Part shown: positions 1 through 6,182 of the stretch, piece after piece
How positions within the stretch are numbered: the first letter of the stretch is position 1
Layout: each line of letters opens with the position of its first letter
Virus record (IMG/VR): IMGVR_UViG_2744054976_000007
Coordinates: 1 to 6,182 of that record
Reading direction: 5' to 3' (one strand)
From: a virus
Taxonomy: Duplodnaviria; Heunggongvirae; Uroviricota; Caudoviricetes
Length of the DNA: 6,182 nucleotides
Position numbers and translations under genes: made by a program
Notes under the pieces: generated by a model
Told to the model about the DNA's origin: nothing
What the model saw: the letters and a program-made list of their open reading frames with translations, nothing else
Databases searched by the model: none

Positions 1-560
1 AGCGCAGCTTCCTCGGCAACAGCGGCAGGAAATTCCGCGAAGGCGGCAAAAACGTCCGAGACGAACGCTAAGTCTTCTGAAACAGCAGCGGGACAGAGCG
101 CCTCAGCTGCGGCAGGTTCAAAAACAGCGGCTGCGTCGTCTGCCAGTGCTGCGTCAACAAGTGCCGGGCAGGCCTCAGCCAGTGCCACCGCTGCCGGAAA
201 ATCGGCAGAAAGCGCCGCATCATCCGCTTCAACAGCCACAACGAAGGCTGGCAGCCACTGAGCAAGCCACTGCAGCAGCGAGGTCTGCTTCTGCAGCAAA
301 AACCTCTGAAACAAATGCAAAGACTTCAGCAGACAATGCTGCTTCCTCTAAGGCGGCAGCCGCATCGTCCGCTGGTTCAGCGGCGTCATCGGCATCATCT
401 GCGTCTGCTTCAAAAGATGAGGCGACCAGACAAGCGTCAGCAGCGAAAGGTAGTGCCACGACAGCAACAACGAAAGCATCAGAGGCGGCAGGCAGTGCGA
501 CGGCTGCATCTCAGAGCAAAGTTGCTGCTGAATCCGCGGCAACGCGTGCCGAAACAGCGG
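1..560 (+). repeat. Quasi-repetitive Ala/Ser/Thr-rich coding repeats (KTSETNAK-type) of the tail-fibre shaft
   Basis: Reiterated gcngcn/tcngcn codons give repeated AAKTSETNAK and SASAA motifs in the translation. This low-complexity region also explains the spurious overlapping ORFs on both strands (68..265, 229..459, 348..563, 315..701). Confidence 0.5.
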
Positions 561-2062
561 CAAAACGGGCAGAGGATATTGCTGATGCCGTATCTCTGGA
601 AGATGCGAGTACGACGAAAAAAGGTGTGGTTCAGCTCAGTAGCGCCACTAACAGCCCGTCTGAAACGCTGGCTGCGACACCAAAAGCGGTTAAGGCGGTA
701 ATGGATGAAACGAACAAGAAAGCGCCCTTAAATAGTCCTGCACTGACCGGAACGCCAACAACGCCAACTGCGCCAAAAGGTACTAATAATACTCAGATCG
801 CAAGTACGGCTTATGTGATGGCCGCGATTGCCGCCCTTGTAGACTCGTCGCCTGACGCACTGAATACGCTGAACGAGTTAGCGGCGGCGCTGGGCAACGA
901 CCCGAATTTTGCGACCACCATGACTAACGCGCTTGCGGGTAAGCAACCGAAAGATGCCACCCTGACGGCGCTGGCCGGTCTTGCTACTGCGGCAGACAGG
1001 TTTCCGTATTTTACGGGGAATGATGTCGCCAGCCTGGCAACCCTGACAAAAGTCGGGCGGGATATTCTTGCGAAATCGACCGTTGCTGCCGTTATCGAAT
1101 ACCTCGGTTTACAGGAAACGGTAAATCAGGCTTCTGGCGCATTACAGAAAAACCAGAACGGCGCAGATATTCCGGGAAAAGATACCTTCACCAAAAACAT
1201 TGGTGCCTGCCGCGCATATAGCGCATGGCTGAATATTGGTGGCGATAGTCAGGTCTGGACAACTGCGCAATTTATTTCGTGGCTGGAGAGTCAGGGGGCA
1301 TTTAACCATCCTTACTGGATGTGCAAAGGCTCATGGGCTTATGCAAATAATAAGGTTATTACAGATACAGGTTGCGGAAATATTTGTCTTGCAGGTGCTG
1401 TGGTGGAAGTTATTGGCACTCGCGGCGCAATGACCATACGCGTTACTACGCCGAGCACGTCCAGCGGTGGCGGAATTACTAACGCTCAATTCACTTATAT
1501 TAATCATGGTGATGCTTACGCTCCTGGCTGGCGACGAGACTACAACACGAAAAACCAGCAGCCTGCATTTGCTTTAGGGCAAACAGGACGCAGGGTCGCA
1601 AATGATAAAGCTGTTGGCTGGAACTGGAATAGCGGTGTTTATGATGCAGATATCAGTGGTGCATCGACATTAATCCTCCACTTCAATATGAATGCGGGGA
1701 GTTGCCCTGCTGTACAGTTCCGCGTGAATTACAGGAACGGCGGTATTTTTTATCGTTCAGCGCGTGATGGTTATGGCTTTGAAGCTAACTGGTCAGAGTT
1801 TTACACCACAACACGCAAACCCTCTGCGGGGGATGTTGGTGCATATACGCAGGCAGAATGTAACTCAAGGTTTATTACAGGTATTCGCCTTGGCGGTCTG
1901 TCATCTGTTCAGACATGGAAAGGCCCCGGCTGGTCTGACAGGTCAGGTTATGTCGTTACGGGTTCAGTTAACGGAAACCGTGATGAATTAATTGATACAA
2001 CTCAGGCAAGGCCAATTCAGTATTGCATTAATGGGACGTGGTATAACGCGGGGAGTATTTAA
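1..2062 (+). CDS. Side tail-fibre protein (constant region plus variable C-terminus Sv); 5'-partial at the window edge and interrupted by an apparent 1-nt frameshift near 250-261
   Basis: Frame +1 from nt 1 reads SAASSATAAGNSAKAAKTSETNAKSSETAAGQSASAAAG...STATTKAGSH and stops at 259-261. Frame +2 (the 146..2062 ORF in the track) continues with the same motif type (EQATAAARSASAAKTSETNAKTSADNAASS...) and is open to the stop at 2060-2062. The frame +2 translation upstream of ~250 is Pro/Gln/Arg-rich and unlike a fibre, so the true gene changes frame there. Downstream are a conserved fibre domain (KKGVVQLSSATNSPSETLAATPKAVKAV...AAVIEYLGLQETVN) and a variable C-terminus ending PIQYCINGTWYNAGSI. Family assignment is from recalled lambda Stf / Mu S / P1 S / e14 Stf proteins. 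Confidence 0.85.
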   Translation, partial: AQLPRQQRQEIPRRRQKRPRRTLSLLKQQRDRAPQLRQVQKQRLRRLPVLRQQVPGRPQPVPPLPENRQKAPHHPLQQPQRRLAATEQATAAARSASAAKTSETNAKTSADNAASSKAAAASSAGSAASSASSASASKDEATRQASAAKGSATTATTKASEAAGSATAASQSKVAAESAATRAETAAKRAEDIADAVSLEDASTTKKGVVQLSSATNSPSETLAATPKAVKAVMDETNKKAPLNSPALTGTPTTPTAPKGTNNTQIASTAYVMAAIAALVDSSPDALNTLNELAAALGNDPNFATTMTNALAGKQPKDATLTALAGLATAADRFPYFTGNDVASLATLTKVGRDILAKSTVAAVIEYLGLQETVNQASGALQKNQNGADIPGKDTFTKNIGACRAYSAWLNIGGDSQVWTTAQFISWLESQGAFNHPYWMCKGSWAYANNKVITDTGCGNICLAGAVVEVIGTRGAMTIRVTTPSTSSGGGITNAQFTYINHGDAYAPGWRRDYNTKNQQPAFALGQTGRRVANDKAVGWNWNSGVYDADISGASTLILHFNMNAGSCPAVQFRVNYRNGGIFYRSARDGYGFEANWSEFYTTTRKPSAGDVGAYTQAECNSRFITGIRLGGLSSVQTWKGPGWSDRSGYVVTGSVNGNRDELIDTTQARPIQYCINGTWYNAGSI
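1092..1117. other. Left crossover site of the Din-type invertible segment (gix/pix-like 26-bp site) inside stf
   Basis: TTATCGAATACCTCGGTTTACAGGAA at 1092-1117 matches the recalled gix/hix/pix-type site. The reverse complement of 4145-4170 is TTATCTAAAACCTCGGTTTACAGGAA, a 24/26 match. Extended inverted repeat 1092-1131 versus 4131-4170 is 35/40 identical with a perfect 25-bp core (1101-1125 / 4137-4161). The site encodes VIEYLGLQE at the constant/variable boundary; the predicted exchange point is the central dinucleotide 1104-1105. Confidence 0.75.
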
Positions 2063-2064
2063 CG

Positions 2065-2598
2065 ATGATGCACTTAAAAAACATTACTGCTGGCAACCCT
2101 AAAACAAAAGAGCAATACCAGCTAACAAAGCAATTTAACATCAAATGGCTTTATTCAGATGATGGAAAAAACTGGTATGAGGAACAAAAGAATTTCCAGC
2201 CAGACACTTTGAAAATGGTCTATGACCATAACGGCGTTATTATTTGTATTGAAAAGGATGTTTCAGCAATTAATCCAGAGGGTGCAAGCGTCGTTGAATT
2301 ACCTGATATTACAGCAAATCGCCGGGCTGATATTTCGGGGAAATGGATGTTCAAAGATGGCGTAGTGATAAAGCGAACTTATACCGAGGAAGAGCAGAGG
2401 CAACAAGCGGAAAATGAAAAGCAAAGCCTGTTGCAACTTGTCAGGGATAAAACCCAGCTATGGGACTCACAGCTACGGCTGGGCATCATTTCCGACGAGA
2501 ATAAACAAAAATTAACCGAGTGGATGCTCTATGCGCAGAAAGTCGAATCTACAGACACTTCCGGCCTGCCAGTAACGTTTCCCGAACAACCAGAATGA
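2065..2598 (+). CDS. Tail-fibre assembly protein (Tfa chaperone) for the Sv fibre tip
   Basis: 177-aa ORF beginning 3 nt after the stf stop, with GGAG about 8 nt upstream. N-terminus [40 protein letters not shown] is typical of the phage Tfa/U family and about 70% identical over ~120 aa to the convergent ORF at 2627..3154. Confidence 0.9.
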   Translation: MMHLKNITAGNPKTKEQYQLTKQFNIKWLYSDDGKNWYEEQKNFQPDTLKMVYDHNGVIICIEKDVSAINPEGASVVELPDITANRRADISGKWMFKDGVVIKRTYTEEEQRQQAENEKQSLLQLVRDKTQLWDSQLRLGIISDENKQKLTEWMLYAQKVESTDTSGLPVTFPEQPE

Positions 2599-2602
2599 GA
2601 GA

Positions 2603-2629
2603 AGGCCCGCTATCGGGCCTTAATTTTTA
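2603..2629. terminator. Putative bidirectional rho-independent terminator between the convergent tfa genes
   Basis: AGGCCCG-CTAT-CGGGCCT (2603-2620) forms a 7-bp GC-rich stem with a 4-nt loop, followed by TAATTTTTA on the + strand and a pyrimidine-rich stretch on the - strand. It lies in the 28-bp gap between the two tfa stop codons. Confidence 0.5.
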
Positions 2630-3154
2630 CTCTGGTTTTTGTGGCCATTCAGGATTTGCCGTATCCACACGGCTGGCCAGAACACTGTAGCGTTCCCATG
2701 CTTCCAGTCGTGTGCGTTCCTCGTCTGTTGCCATATTCAGCCTGACAGCGCGTTCCAGCGGTTGGATGACTGATTCAGCTTCGGAAAGCAATGCGGCCTT
2801 TTGTGATTCGGCCTGTTGTTGTTGCTCGTCTGCCGTATAAATCCGTTTAACCACAGCTCCGTCCCTAAACATCCACTTACCGGAATCATCAGCGCAGCGG
2901 TTGGCTGTAATATCTGGAACCTCAACGACGCTATAACCTTCAGGGTTAAGCGTGGAGGCATCTTTGGTGATGGCGACAATAATATTATTTGCATCGTAAA
3001 CAATCTTTATTGTGTCTGGCTGAAAGTTTTTCACTTCCTCATACCAGTTTTTTCCGTCTTCGGACCATAACCAGATAACATCAAAATTCTTTGTTAGCTG
3101 ATATTGTTCTTTTGTTTTTGGATTTCCAGACTTAATATTTTTTAAATGCTGCAT
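2627..3154 (-). CDS. tfaE: Tail-fibre assembly protein (Tfa') paired with the alternative fibre tip Sv'
   Basis: 175-aa [57 protein letters not shown]...; matches my recollection of E. coli e14 TfaE. Position and orientation (immediately downstream of Sv' on the - strand) fit the Mu U' / e14 tfaE arrangement. Symbol is from memory, not a search. Confidence 0.9.
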
Positions 3155-3157
3155 AAA

Positions 3158-4120
3158 TTACACCTGTACGACGTTATACCATGTGCCATTGATGTATTTT
3201 TGTATTGGTCTGAATACTGCCGGATCATCGCCATCAACTGCACCGATAATGCCAAGCCCCGTAATTGCATGACCTGATTTCTCATACATCACGCCTTTTT
3301 GCATAGTCTGAACAACACGTGTACCAAGTCGGACATCTCTCACATAACGTGAGTCAAAATTACCATAATTGCCGGGAATAACTTGCGCACCGCAAAGCCA
3401 GTTGCCATTGTTGTCCATGTACGCCTGACCATCGGTGCCATTGGCTGTCCTTGAGTTATTAATCATGTAGATGCCAAATTGCTTATTCCCCAGTCCACCA
3501 ATCATAAATTTGCGATCAGCGTGGTCCTGACGAAGTAATGCCTGCGCACCATCGGTGGATACCGCATTGCGTCCCAAAATAACATTCTGGTCACGCATAT
3601 GAATCCACATGCCGGTACTACTGTTAATTGCAAAACGGTTTGCAAATATATCCCCTGTAACATCAAGACCATGCCCCATGCTTATCCGACCAGTTCTGAG
3701 ATTAAGCGTAAAGGGGCGTAGTGGCCCTATATCACCATTTTCTCCCTCATTCTCTCGTGTAGGGATGATATGCAGGCATTCTTCAGAACGACGAAAAATA
3801 GCACCAAAAGATGAATTAAATATCCTCAGTGCATTGACTGTCGATATTTTTACTTCACTGCTGAAAAGGGCTTTAACAAGGACAGACAAAGCATCCCATT
3901 TAAGAGTCATCAGGTCTTTTGTTGTGGTGCTCTGGCGGCTTCTCCATTTGAAATATTCATTGCCGTTGTCGCCTGTTTCAAACCACATGTATGAATCAGT
4001 GTCGCTGTCGGCATTATTTTTAAAACCAATCTTTGCCCAGTCAGTATTTCTAATCCAGGCAAGGATTGAGTCGTTTTCAAAAGTAAGCCCACCGGACAAG
4101 GTATCGCCATTCTTTTGCAC
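3158..4120 (-). CDS. Alternative tail-fibre C-terminal segment (Sv'), start-less and expressed only after inversion fuses it to the stf constant region
   Basis: Open frame on the - strand from the in-frame stop at 4163-4165 down to the stop at 3158-3160; the track starts it at a GTG (4118-4120). After the crossover site it reads LGLQETVNRARNAVQKNGDTLSGGLTFEND..., sharing LGLQETVN with the + strand fibre, and ends PIQKYINGTWYNVVQV (compare PIQYCINGTWYNAGSI). No SD or start of its own; the real coding extent probably begins at the crossover (~4157). Confidence 0.8.
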   Translation of the reverse strand: MQKNGDTLSGGLTFENDSILAWIRNTDWAKIGFKNNADSDTDSYMWFETGDNGNEYFKWRSRQSTTTKDLMTLKWDALSVLVKALFSSEVKISTVNALRIFNSSFGAIFRRSEECLHIIPTRENEGENGDIGPLRPFTLNLRTGRISMGHGLDVTGDIFANRFAINSSTGMWIHMRDQNVILGRNAVSTDGAQALLRQDHADRKFMIGGLGNKQFGIYMINNSRTANGTDGQAYMDNNGNWLCGAQVIPGNYGNFDSRYVRDVRLGTRVVQTMQKGVMYEKSGHAITGLGIIGAVDGDDPAVFRPIQKYINGTWYNVVQV

Positions 4121-4144
4121 GGCGTTCCTGGCCCTGTTTACCGT

Positions 4145-4170
4145 TTCCTGTAAACCGAGGTTTTAGATAA
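4145..4170. other. Right crossover site of the invertible segment (gix/pix-like), inverted relative to 1092-1117
   Basis: TTCCTGTAAACCGAGGTTTTAGATAA; see left site. The two mismatches lie in the outer half-site, and an in-frame TAA sits in that outer half on the - strand reading. Confidence 0.75.
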
Positions 4171-4224
4171 TGGCGGTTTCTGGCCTGCATGGCATGATTT
4201 GTGCTTTTGGACGGGAGATTCAGC

Positions 4225-4515
4225 GTGCTGATTGGCTATGTAAGGGTATCAACAAATGACCAGAATACAGACCTGCAACGAAACGCTCTTGTTTGTGCAG
4301 GATGTGAACAAATATTTGAAGATAAATTAAGCGGAATAAGGACAGGCCGACCTGGATTAAAACGTGCTTTAAAGCGCCTTCAAAAAGGTGACGCACTGGT
4401 TGTCTGGAAACTGGACTGACTGGGTCACTGTATGCGGCATCTTGTCGTGCTGGTGGTGGAAGCCTGGAAGAAGTATCGGGTGTTGCTGAACCGTGTTGAT
4501 ACGTCAACTGCACAG
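4225..4515 (+). pseudogene. pin: Din-family DNA invertase (Pin/Gin/Hin-like serine recombinase) remnant: premature stop after codon 65, 3' part decayed and deleted
   Basis: From GTG 4225: LIGYVRVSTNDQNTDLQRNALVCAGCEQIFEDKLSGIRTGRPGLKRALKRLQKGDALVVWKLD then TGA (4417-4419). Recalled Gin/Pin proteins continue WKLDRLGRSM...; here the Arg codon position is TGA. The next ~30 codons still read [15 protein letters not shown]...NRVDTSTAQ (compare LGRSMKHLISLVGEL...TDSIDTSSP) before homology stops near 4515. The track's 4201 start is an upstream in-frame GTG. Confidence 0.8.
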
Positions 4516-4639
4516 GATATTGAATGGCCAGCACTGCCGTAGGGTAAAACATATAAATTCTATAATTAGATGTATCTTTCCATTTACGGCAAGGAAGGGG
4601 GCTTGGAAGACGTAAAGCATCTCACACTGAGATTATTTT

Positions 4640-5230
4640 TTATATGTCAGGTGTCTGAAGTTTTGCTTTGGCTCTTAAAATGGTTTGCCGCGAGGTTTTG
4701 AATTCCCGGGCAATGGCACTTATACTTACACCTGACTTAATTCGTTCGAATACCACCTGTTTCTGTTCTTCATTTAACACAGGTAGTCGACCAAAACGTT
4801 TCCCTGCGCCGCGGGCTCTTACTATCCCGGAATGAGTGCGTTCAAGTAAAAGGTCTCGTTCAAATTCAGCGACTGCTGAAATTACTTGCATCATCATTTT
4901 TCCTGTTGGACTGGTCAGGTCAATGCCAGCCAATGCTAAGCAATGCACTCTGATACCTGTTTCGGTCAGTTGTTCCACTGTTTTCCTGATATCCATTGCA
5001 TTACAACCAAGGCGATCCAGTTTTGTCACAATCAATTGATCACCACATTTCAGGCGAGCAAGCAACCGGTTAAAACCAGGACGCTCACTGGTTGCTGCTG
5101 AGCCGCTAATGTGTTCTTCGATTATTTGCTGAGGTTTGATTTTAAAACCTGCACTTTCGATTTCCCGGCGTTGATTTTCGGTGGTCTGATCCAGCGTTGA
5201 TATCCGACAGTAAGCAAAAATTCGAGACAT
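4640..5230 (-). CDS. Small serine recombinase (resolvase/invertase family), intact, not the cognate Din invertase
   Basis: 196-aa [25 protein letters not shown]... with the catalytic-serine motif (RISTLDQ), the KLDRLG motif and a C-terminal resolvase-type HTH ([23 protein letters not shown]). Only distantly similar to the pin remnant. Weak SD (GAG about 9 nt upstream). Confidence 0.9.
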
Positions 5231-5351
5231 AGTGAGACTCTATACGAAATTGGTGTTCATATCATAATGCATCTCAGAAAATAATTATGATTATTTTTGT
5301 GCATATTTGTATGTACACGTTCGAAAATAAACGAATGCGTATGCAACCCCG

Positions 5352-5390
5352 TAATTTTGGTGAGACCCAAAATCGATTTTGTGAAAAATG
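5352..5390. promoter_or_regulatory. Palindrome cluster upstream of the recombinase gene: candidate operator or recombination (res-like) site
   Basis: Perfect 14-bp palindrome CAAAATCGATTTTG (5368-5381), overlapping the inverted repeat ATTTTGG-N6-CCAAAAT (5354-5373) and followed by ATTTTGTGAAAAAT. Resolvase-family res sites typically sit just upstream of the recombinase gene; functional assignment is inference only. Confidence 0.25.
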
Positions 5391-5546
5391 GCTTTAACTC
5401 GGTTTGTTTTTCGAGTTCCGGGCGGACTCAAGGAAGAAGAATAGTGTTGCGTGTTATTTTAACCAGATTTCAAGTTGTTTGGTCGTGGAAAAGTGGAGCA
5501 AAATGTTGTTAAAGTGGAAAAATGATAAAAAAGTAAGTTTATTATA

Positions 5547-5780
5547 TTACATTTTACCATTTAAATTTTGGTTGTCTTTAAGAACTGATATCGCTGTTTG
5601 TAATAATTCTTTGTTATCCAGCCATGATTTTTTCTTTATGTTTCCTTCAATGTAATCAAGCAATGTTCTGGTATTGATAGGTCTTCCCTGTTTTGCTACT
5701 TCCACTACAGCATTCCCTAGGATAATTCTTACTTCAGGAAGCTGCGCAGGGAACCACTTTAGGGTGTCTTTTGATTTCAT
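5547..5780 (-). CDS. Hypothetical small protein (77 aa from the SD-supported ATG; 88 aa if the upstream ATG at 5813 is used)
   Basis: ORF MKSKDTLKWFPAQLPEVRIILGNAVVEVAKQGRPINTRTLLDYIEGNIKKKSWLDNKELLQTAISVLKDNQNLNGKM. AAGGAA lies 7-8 nt upstream of the ATG at 5780, whereas the ATG at 5813 has no SD. Same strand as, and 316 bp upstream of, the recombinase gene. No family recognised. Confidence 0.5.
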   Translation of the reverse strand: MKSKDTLKWFPAQLPEVRIILGNAVVEVAKQGRPINTRTLLDYIEGNIKKKSWLDNKELLQTAISVLKDNQNLNGKM

Positions 5781-6182
5781 GAAGATATTCCTTAAAATAT
5801 TATTGATTTTCATTGCGATATTGTATGTCTGATTCAGGATATGTTGACTTATACATCGGTTTTGTCTGGGTTATTGGATATGCCAATCCCTAATTTTATT
5901 AGGGCATAACTAAAAATGCTGAATATGATAAGGAGAGATGTGATTATCAGTATGCTGTTCATATAGCCTCGAATTAGTAATGTGTTATATATGATATAGT
6001 TGACAATTTTTATCTTGGGTGTTCTTAAAGTTCGTAGATAAACATTGTCGTTTCAGGTATACAGGAATGCTAACAGGTGGCAGCAAAAATCAGGCGGTTT
6101 ATGGCGCAAGCTGAAGCGGCAACTGCAAACTATCTTATGCAGAGACTCTACACAGATTGGGTTTAAAAGTATACATAGATAA

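Follow-up and report, generated by a model that had tools for sequence, protein, structure and literature searches.

The textbook example of a phage changing its host range by site-specific inversion is the invertible tail-fibre segment. The biology of these segments was established in the 1980s and 1990s, and the system described here is of a kind already known. The subject of this work is a stretch of 6,182 nucleotides from a virus of the Caudoviricetes (IMG/VR record IMGVR_UViG_2744054976_000007, positions 1 to 6,182), hereafter called the window, which carries a segment of this type between two inverted crossover sites. A first-pass annotation, made from the sequence, had described the region 1092-4170 as a complete tail-fibre switch of the Din type. 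In this paper, we report that the invertase gene adjoining the segment is a truncated remnant, that the segment is found in both orientations in complete Escherichia coli genomes, and that it is very probably an orphaned host-range cassette of the Mu G / Shigella B type which is flipped in trans by an invertase of the Din family.

Gene content of the invertible segment

The 3.05-kb segment between the two sites holds a tip gene (Sv) and a chaperone gene (tfa) on one strand, and a second pair (tfa' and Sv') on the other. Its features, together with the constant region on its left, are listed below by their coordinates in the window.

1-1104, plus strand: Sc, the 3' part of the constant region of a lambdoid side-tail-fibre gene (Pfam Phage_fiber_2 match), the start of which lies upstream of the window
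1092-1117, minus strand: left crossover site, reading TTCCTGTAAACC GA GGTATTCGATAA on the minus strand; identical to bixL at 26/26 positions; core dinucleotide at 1104-1105
1105-2062, plus strand: Sv, the tip that is homologous to Mu S' (the G(-) tip) and continuous with the constant region in this orientation; the open reading frame (ORF) ends at 2062
2065-2598, plus strand: tfa, tail-fibre assembly chaperone gene of the Mu U' type (Pfam Caudo_TAP, E-value 2e-36)
2602-2621, no strand assigned: terminator-like GC-rich hairpin between the convergent tfa genes (consensus scan, pattern match only)
2627-3154, minus strand: tfa', silent chaperone gene of the Mu U type (Pfam Caudo_TAP, E-value 4e-37)
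3158-4157, minus strand: Sv', silent alternative tip without a start codon of its own, a homologue of the variable part of Mu S (the G(+) tip)
4145-4170, plus strand: right crossover site, TTCCTGTAAACC GA GGTTTTAGATAA; identical to bixR at 26/26 positions and also to one SfMu gix site; core dinucleotide at 4157-4158

The ORFs and the Caudo_TAP matches agree with the gene layout that had been proposed for the segment. At the amino acid level, Sv is 96% identical to the variable part of Mu S', Tfa is 97% identical to Mu U' and Tfa' is 93% identical to Mu U, while Sv' is a mosaic with 70% identity to the variable part of Mu S. The ORF formed by the constant region and Sv terminates in ...PIQYCINGTWYNAGSI at 2062. 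Both tips open with the residues LGLQETVN, an observation of the first-pass annotation that is borne out by both translations. Read on the minus strand, the right site has ATC TAA AAC in its outer half, with an in-frame TAA at 4163-4165, and therefore Sv' is closed upstream and has no reading frame leading into it. When the segment was inverted in silico, the constant region joined Sv' in frame and stayed open to the Sv' stop, so the earlier suggestion that Sv' can be translated only after inversion holds as well. By the homology of its tips, the window is in a state that we take as equivalent to Mu G(-), in which the S'-type tip is joined to the constant region and the S-type tip is silent. 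Mu particles of the G(+) type infect E. coli K-12, and those of the G(-) type are infectious for other hosts (PMC4406740). The hairpin between the two tfa genes has an 8-bp stem with 6 GC pairs, followed by a T-run. A promoter scan of the window gave matches no more numerous than in shuffled sequence, and an Rfam scan found no family match anywhere in the window.

Identity of the crossover sites

A repeat finder placed two inverted arms of 38 nt with 92% complementarity at 1088-1125 and 4137-4174. Within these arms lie the 26-bp sites, 1092-1117 (TTATCGAATACCTCGGTTTACAGGAA) and 4145-4170 (TTCCTGTAAACCGAGGTTTTAGATAA), at exactly the coordinates that had been given for them. When the right 26-mer was allowed up to 3 mismatches, it matched 2 places in the window, namely the two sites, and none in 200 shuffles. 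The Din-family consensus and a table of known sites, including the sequences of bixL, bixR and pix, have been published (PMC3241671, Table 3). The predicted alignment to known Din sites was found in full: the two sites of the window agree with bixL and bixR at 26/26 positions and with gix at all but 1-2, they lie in inverted orientation, and both have a GA core. This published table identifies them as the sites of the Shigella boydii B segment. A third crossover site was not found in the window even at 7 mismatches, and a Min-like multi-site system of the p15B type, which has more than two sites, was rejected on this ground.

A truncated invertase and a recombination scar

To the right of the segment, the following features were identified.

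4225-4462, plus strand: remnant of the cognate Din-family invertase gene (gin/pinB type), with a GTG start (BLASTP against Gin; DNA alignment)
4243-4314, no strand assigned: equivalent of the recombinational (Fis) enhancer inside the invertase remnant, homologous to the Cin enhancer annotated in P1
4447-4542, plus strand: end of a Rac-type tfa gene (3' fragment), continuing the frame of the remnant (recombination/deletion scar)
4640-5230, minus strand: pinR, an intact serine recombinase of 196 amino acids (Pfam Resolvase and HTH_7; annotated pinR)

The truncated invertase is contained in an ORF of 72 amino acids at 4201-4419, with the GTG at 4225. Its first 64 codons are 95% identical to Gin, and a TGA at 4417-4419 stands where Gin has Arg65. 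DNA alignment with Mu gin, SfMu gin and e14 pinE showed that the homology continues past this stop for about 14 further codons, which resemble e14 pin and cin, and ends near 4462. The Pfam Resolvase match of the remnant covers only positions 2-73 of the 145-position profile; the C-terminus of the catalytic domain, the E-helix and the DNA-binding domain are absent, and no helix-turn-helix was matched. The segment is accordingly not adjoined by an intact cognate invertase, and, with only a pseudogene remnant left of that gene, the element is unable to flip on its own. The word "complete" in the first-pass annotation has therefore to be given up: with a nonsense codon at position 65 and its 3' half gone, the cognate invertase is dead.

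The tfa fragment consists of the last 26 or so codons of a Rac-type tfa gene and ends with a stop at 4540-4542. In the E. coli genomes TUM9868 and 13C1065T, it is labelled by the Prokaryotic Genome Annotation Pipeline (PGAP) as "tail fiber assembly protein, incomplete, missing N-terminus". The stretch from the remnant onwards is a mosaic, being gin-like to about 4415, e14-pin/cin-like to about 4462, and then of the Rac tfa type to its end. In its sequence, the scar looks like the product of recombination between a cassette of the B-pinB type and an arrangement like the stfR-tfaR-pinR of K-12 Rac.

The enhancer is retained in the remnant

The P1 record places the Cin enhancer at nucleotides 19-90 of cin, and Fis sites inside the gin coding region have been described (PMC3378877). 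The homologous interval of the window, 4243-4314, is identical to Mu gin at 72/72 positions, and the centre of the right site is 85-157 bp away; the native spacing between enhancer and site has been described as roughly 100 bp for Hin (PMC3798978). In sequence and spacing, the 5' part of the invertase gene therefore still holds an enhancer of the expected kind. Two 15-mers resembling the Fis consensus are found in it at 4246-4260 and 4295-4309, 49 bp apart; this pair is the one homologous to the Fis sites of Hin. As several 15-mers of the form G-N13-C match this consensus, the enhancer call is based on the 72/72 identity and not on particular 15-mers. Another pair was set aside: its members, at distances of 119.5 and 167.5 bp from the site centre and thus with a spacing of 48 bp, lie partly outside the interval homologous to the P1 enhancer.

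The segment occurs in both orientations in E. coli genomes

Complete E. coli genomes were searched with both junctions built in silico, i.e. the constant region (C) joined to Sv and to Sv'. The junction C+Sv' was spanned in 356 genomes and C+Sv in 126. With scar-specific queries, made from right-hand junctions that can be spanned only by loci carrying the truncated invertase and the tfa fragment, 97 genomes with scar-bearing loci were found in the orientation of the window and 58 in the inverted one.

A single pair of genomes shows the relation between the two classes. The window is E. coli DNA and is 99.9% identical to TUM9868; in that genome, a lambdoid prophage occupies the Rac site, and the window corresponds to its right end. 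Strain 1217KP, on the other hand, matches the window inverted in silico, with 99.94% identity over all 6182 bp, and its differences from the inverted window are exactly those by which TUM9868 differs from the uninverted one. Both strains have the same Rac-site context and encode an identical truncated invertase protein (WP_306299112.1). The two alleles thus differ only by a precise inversion, the breakpoints of which fall inside the repeat and can be placed no finer than 1101-1125, a shared stretch of the repeat in which all 25 bp are exactly alike. Full-length fibre ORFs exist in nature for both alleles, of 947 amino acids in the orientation of the window (TUM9868) and of 961 amino acids in the inverted one. 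Furthermore, both orientations are present at both chromosomal sites, Rac and attLambda. Across genomes, therefore, two orientations exist with breakpoints in the sites. As the identical scar is found in both orientation classes, the flipping came after the loss of the invertase; on these alignments, we conclude that the segment has flipped since its own invertase was lost.

As a control of the method, two assemblies of E. coli W were found to carry a Mu-like prophage with an intact gin at the same coordinates in opposite orientations. This pair (NC_017635.1, locus L010, 293844-294692, and NC_017664.1) is direct evidence of active flipping in that strain.

In three related loci (L003-L005, at about 5422-8301), PGAP annotates only part of the C+Sv' fusion and labels it "incomplete, missing C-terminus", though the ORF of 961 amino acids is intact. 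Such mislabelled Sv' or C+Sv' genes are annotation artefacts typical of invertible segments.

A frameshift in the constant region of the window

Compared with all five related loci that were fetched (L001-L005), the window has a 2-bp deletion near 252, affecting the region 250-262, which causes a frameshift and brings a stop at 259-261 into the reading frame of the fibre. The deletion is shared by none of 5,426 complete E. coli genomes, the best matches being 99.3% identical and 273 nt long against 271 in the query. Either the mutation is recent and private to this sequence, or the assembly is in error here. As the sequence stands, the fibre gene of the window is probably not expressible, and if the deletion is real, neither tip could be made as a full-length fibre. 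It had been proposed that the fibre expressed in the current orientation is the constant region with Sv; the logic of expressed and silent tips is right, but for this particular copy the expression itself is made doubtful by the frameshift and its stop.

Comparison with known invertible segments

Over 1092-4170, the DNA identity of the window is 92-94% with the P2-like phage P88 and with the G segments of Mu (92.5%), D108 and SfMu; with the P1 and P7 C segments it is 89-93%. Where the architecture had been likened to Mu G, P1 C and e14 P together, the first two comparisons stand as homology in DNA, whereas e14 P is not close. Judged by sites and sequence, the nearest relatives are Shigella B, with identical sites, and Mu G, with its 92-94% identity, and not e14 P.

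The invertible B segment of Shigella boydii with its invertase gene pinB was described by Tominaga et al. (1991; GenBank D00660). Like the window, it has bixL and bixR, alike at 26/26 positions including the GA core, and a segment of about 3 kb of the Mu G type. Since bixL extends with its outer half into the constant region, a constant-region junction of the same type is implied, and the Shigella element probably shares the lambdoid-type junction. The likeness to Shigella B is drawn from the sites and from the homology that both elements have to Mu and P1; according to the P1 record, stretches of the C segment are 89-93% identical to D00660. The difference lies in the invertase gene, which in the window has a stop at codon 65 and its 3' half replaced by the tfa fragment.

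With Mu G, as with D108 and SfMu, the window shares the gene order S'-U' / U-S between the sites, the GA core and sites within 1-2 mismatches of gix, the 95% identity of the first 64 invertase codons, the 72/72 enhancer, and the mechanism and host-range logic. Both gene pairs of Mu, S/U and S'/U', therefore have their counterparts. The Mu context (Sc and gin-com-mom), however, is missing: the constant region of the window is lambdoid and lies downstream of J and lom instead of being Mu Sc, Sv' is a mosaic with only 70% identity to Mu S, gin is truncated, and downstream there is no com/mom but the tfa fragment, pinR and ydfK. The tips and chaperones of the P1/P7 C segment are homologous as well (89-93% in DNA over 1134-4152), with the same inversion logic and an enhancer inside the invertase gene; the C segment differs in its length of 4.2 kb, in the position of cix, which is further out and has an AA core, and in cin, which lies on the opposite side and reads towards the segment. 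The e14 P segment follows the same principle within the same family and is likewise a cryptic-prophage copy in E. coli, but it is 1.8 kb long against 3.05 kb in the window. As a closest relative it was rejected: its site departs from that of the window at 8/26 positions and carries AA in the core, and pinE and the remnant share only 74% DNA identity over most of the remnant. A defective Din invertase gene, pinF of Shigella flexneri, was reportedly also described in 1991 by Tominaga and colleagues, and would be an earlier case of such a gene decaying in the chromosome of an enterobacterium.

The similarity to Mu, D108, SfMu, P88 and PhiR68_1 begins and ends at the inverted repeats (1088-1092 and 4170-4174), and therefore the tip-and-chaperone cassette appears to move between unrelated phage types as a module bounded by its sites.

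An orphaned cassette probably flipped in trans

Taken together, the element is with high probability a Mu G / Shigella B-type invertible host-range cassette which has been orphaned and is flipped in trans by a Din-family invertase. The cassette is a graft on the side-tail-fibre gene that a lambdoid prophage carries at the Rac site of E. coli, and its flipping would follow the standard Din mechanism, in which invertase dimers would bind both sites and form a synapse at the Fis-bound enhancer, with subsequent cleavage at the 2-bp core and a rotation of 180 degrees. The enzyme would be supplied by another invertase of the Din family, e.g. PinE of e14 or the invertase of a Mu-, P1- or P2-like prophage, and in cells without such an enzyme the segment would be frozen. 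Members of the family cross-complement, and the inversion of Mu G by PinE is cited in a passage of PMC12529663.

As a proxy for an enzyme acting in trans, the 3' halves of gin, pinE and cin were appended to the junction queries, and the number of matching places per genome was compared with the baseline. The number rose from 2 to 4 in TUM9868, from 1 to 3 in 2017.02.04CC, from 2 to 3 in 1217KP and from 2 to 4 in XH993, and a second Din-type gene was detectable in about half of the carriers checked in each orientation class. A Din-family enzyme in trans is therefore plausible, though not universal.

Several points weigh against flipping in trans by such an enzyme. At megablast sensitivity, no extra Din-type match was found in ET76, ES1, S1-INA-02-A, SCZE5 and PSS-13; in such carriers, about half of those checked, the flip is either older, or due to an enzyme since lost or divergent, or the work of another recombinase. 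The count of places per record is an indirect proxy, which sees only genes at least about 85% identical to gin, pinE or cin and does not show them to be intact. Flipping in the isolate from which the window comes is extrapolated from other genomes, and the binding of Fis to the enhancer is predicted from sequence identity only. The exact register of the Fis sites is uncertain too, as the two 15-mers are 49 bp apart and the Fis sites of Hin 48 bp.

Alternative explanations

The best surviving alternative, which is a sub-case of the orphaned cassette flipped in trans, is that the element in the isolate of the window is a frozen relic, with no invertase in trans and a frameshifted fibre. The truncated invertase, the private 2-bp frameshift and the share of related carriers without a detectable second Din invertase (about half) all fit this possibility, and the view of the isolate's genome is confined to the window. 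Its nearest genome, TUM9868 (99.9% identical), on the other hand, has two extra Din-type matches, the deletion may be an assembly error, and the cis elements are intact. We regard the relic as possible, but somewhat unlikely.

A further candidate is the adjoining serine recombinase PinR, which might have taken over the flipping of the orphaned cassette. An intact gene, pinR is separated from the right crossover site by about 470 bp, and in both orientation classes some carriers have no detectable second Din-type invertase. It has also been reported that PinQ, which is 99% identical to PinR, raises the inversion of the e14 P segment from about 30% to 88% when over-produced (Kirigo et al. 2025). 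In the same study, however, a pinE mutant with intact pinQ and pinR was locked in one orientation, and a search with the K-12 prophages including rac and Qin reported inversions only in e14. The protein itself is distant, with 36% identity to Gin and 38% to PinE, while Gin and PinE are 78% identical to each other. Enhancer-dependent invertases have Lys47, basic residues at 48 and 51, Gln151, Arg154 and Leu155 (McLean et al. 2013, PMC3798978). In an alignment with Hin, for which Gin, Cin and PinE were taken from sequence records, the latter three keep all six, whereas PinR has N, R, A, V, E and R at these positions and thus lacks five of the six Fis/enhancer-contact residues (K47N, K51A, Q151V, R154E and L155R in Hin numbering). 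Moreover, the copies of cassette and scar at attLambda occur in both orientations with no pinR beside them. Finally, the layout of tfa fragment and pinR is that of K-12 Rac, which has no invertible segment, and therefore the adjacency of pinR looks like an accident of recombination. A takeover by PinR is accordingly improbable. Were it true, PinR would gain a native substrate in Rac-site prophages, one which K-12 lacks. Still more doubtful is the further proposal, modelled on the 2025 work with PinQ and e14, that PinR flips the cassette and that the host keeps orphan cassettes as a recombinase-switched device masking receptors against phages, and not as a host-range switch.

That the two orientations arose by rare RecA-dependent or illegitimate recombination between the 38-bp inverted repeats is the least credible explanation. 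The breakpoints, resolved only to the 25 exactly matching bp of 1101-1125, do not separate homologous from site-specific recombination. An exact match of 25 bp, however, is about the shortest on which homologous recombination can act, and such recombination seems too rare to account for so common a polymorphism: the two orientations, in 97 and 58 genomes, occur at two chromosomal sites and distinguish alleles that over 6.2 kb are otherwise the same. In addition, these repeats are true Din crossover sites with a perfectly conserved enhancer next to them.

Genomic context and implications

In TUM9868, the genes follow in the order J, lom, tail fibre, the segment, pinR, ydfK and ynaM, and then uspF and ompN. 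The fibre gene there is an ORF of 947 amino acids that begins about 780 bp upstream of the first base of the window, and with J and lom a gene annotated as "prophage tail fiber N-terminal domain" lies upstream. Cassette and scar are found in identical form at attLambda (L002-L004) and at Rac (L001 and L005), the shared sequence (1-4533) ending at about 4530-4533, and its presence at two sites therefore points to exchange between resident prophages after the scar had formed.

What is added here to the known biology is small. An orphaned cassette that retains its enhancer is widespread, being present in at least 155 complete E. coli genomes, at two prophage sites and in both orientations, and would be a natural example of cis elements maintained and operated by the enzymes of other prophages. 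In addition, prophages at the Rac site outside K-12 hold an invertible segment beside pinR, and offer a direct substrate for the claim of flipping by PinR/PinQ. The layout also explains two labels given by annotation pipelines, "recombinase family protein" for the stub of the invertase and "incomplete" for Sv' as a tail protein.

Two minor observations concern the right part of the window. PinR lacks the Fis-contact residues of the Din invertases and is encoded directly beside an invertible segment here. Downstream of pinR, the region 5547-6182 contains ydfK (cold-shock-like) and a small gene of the ynaM type, as in the Rac and Qin prophages of K-12.

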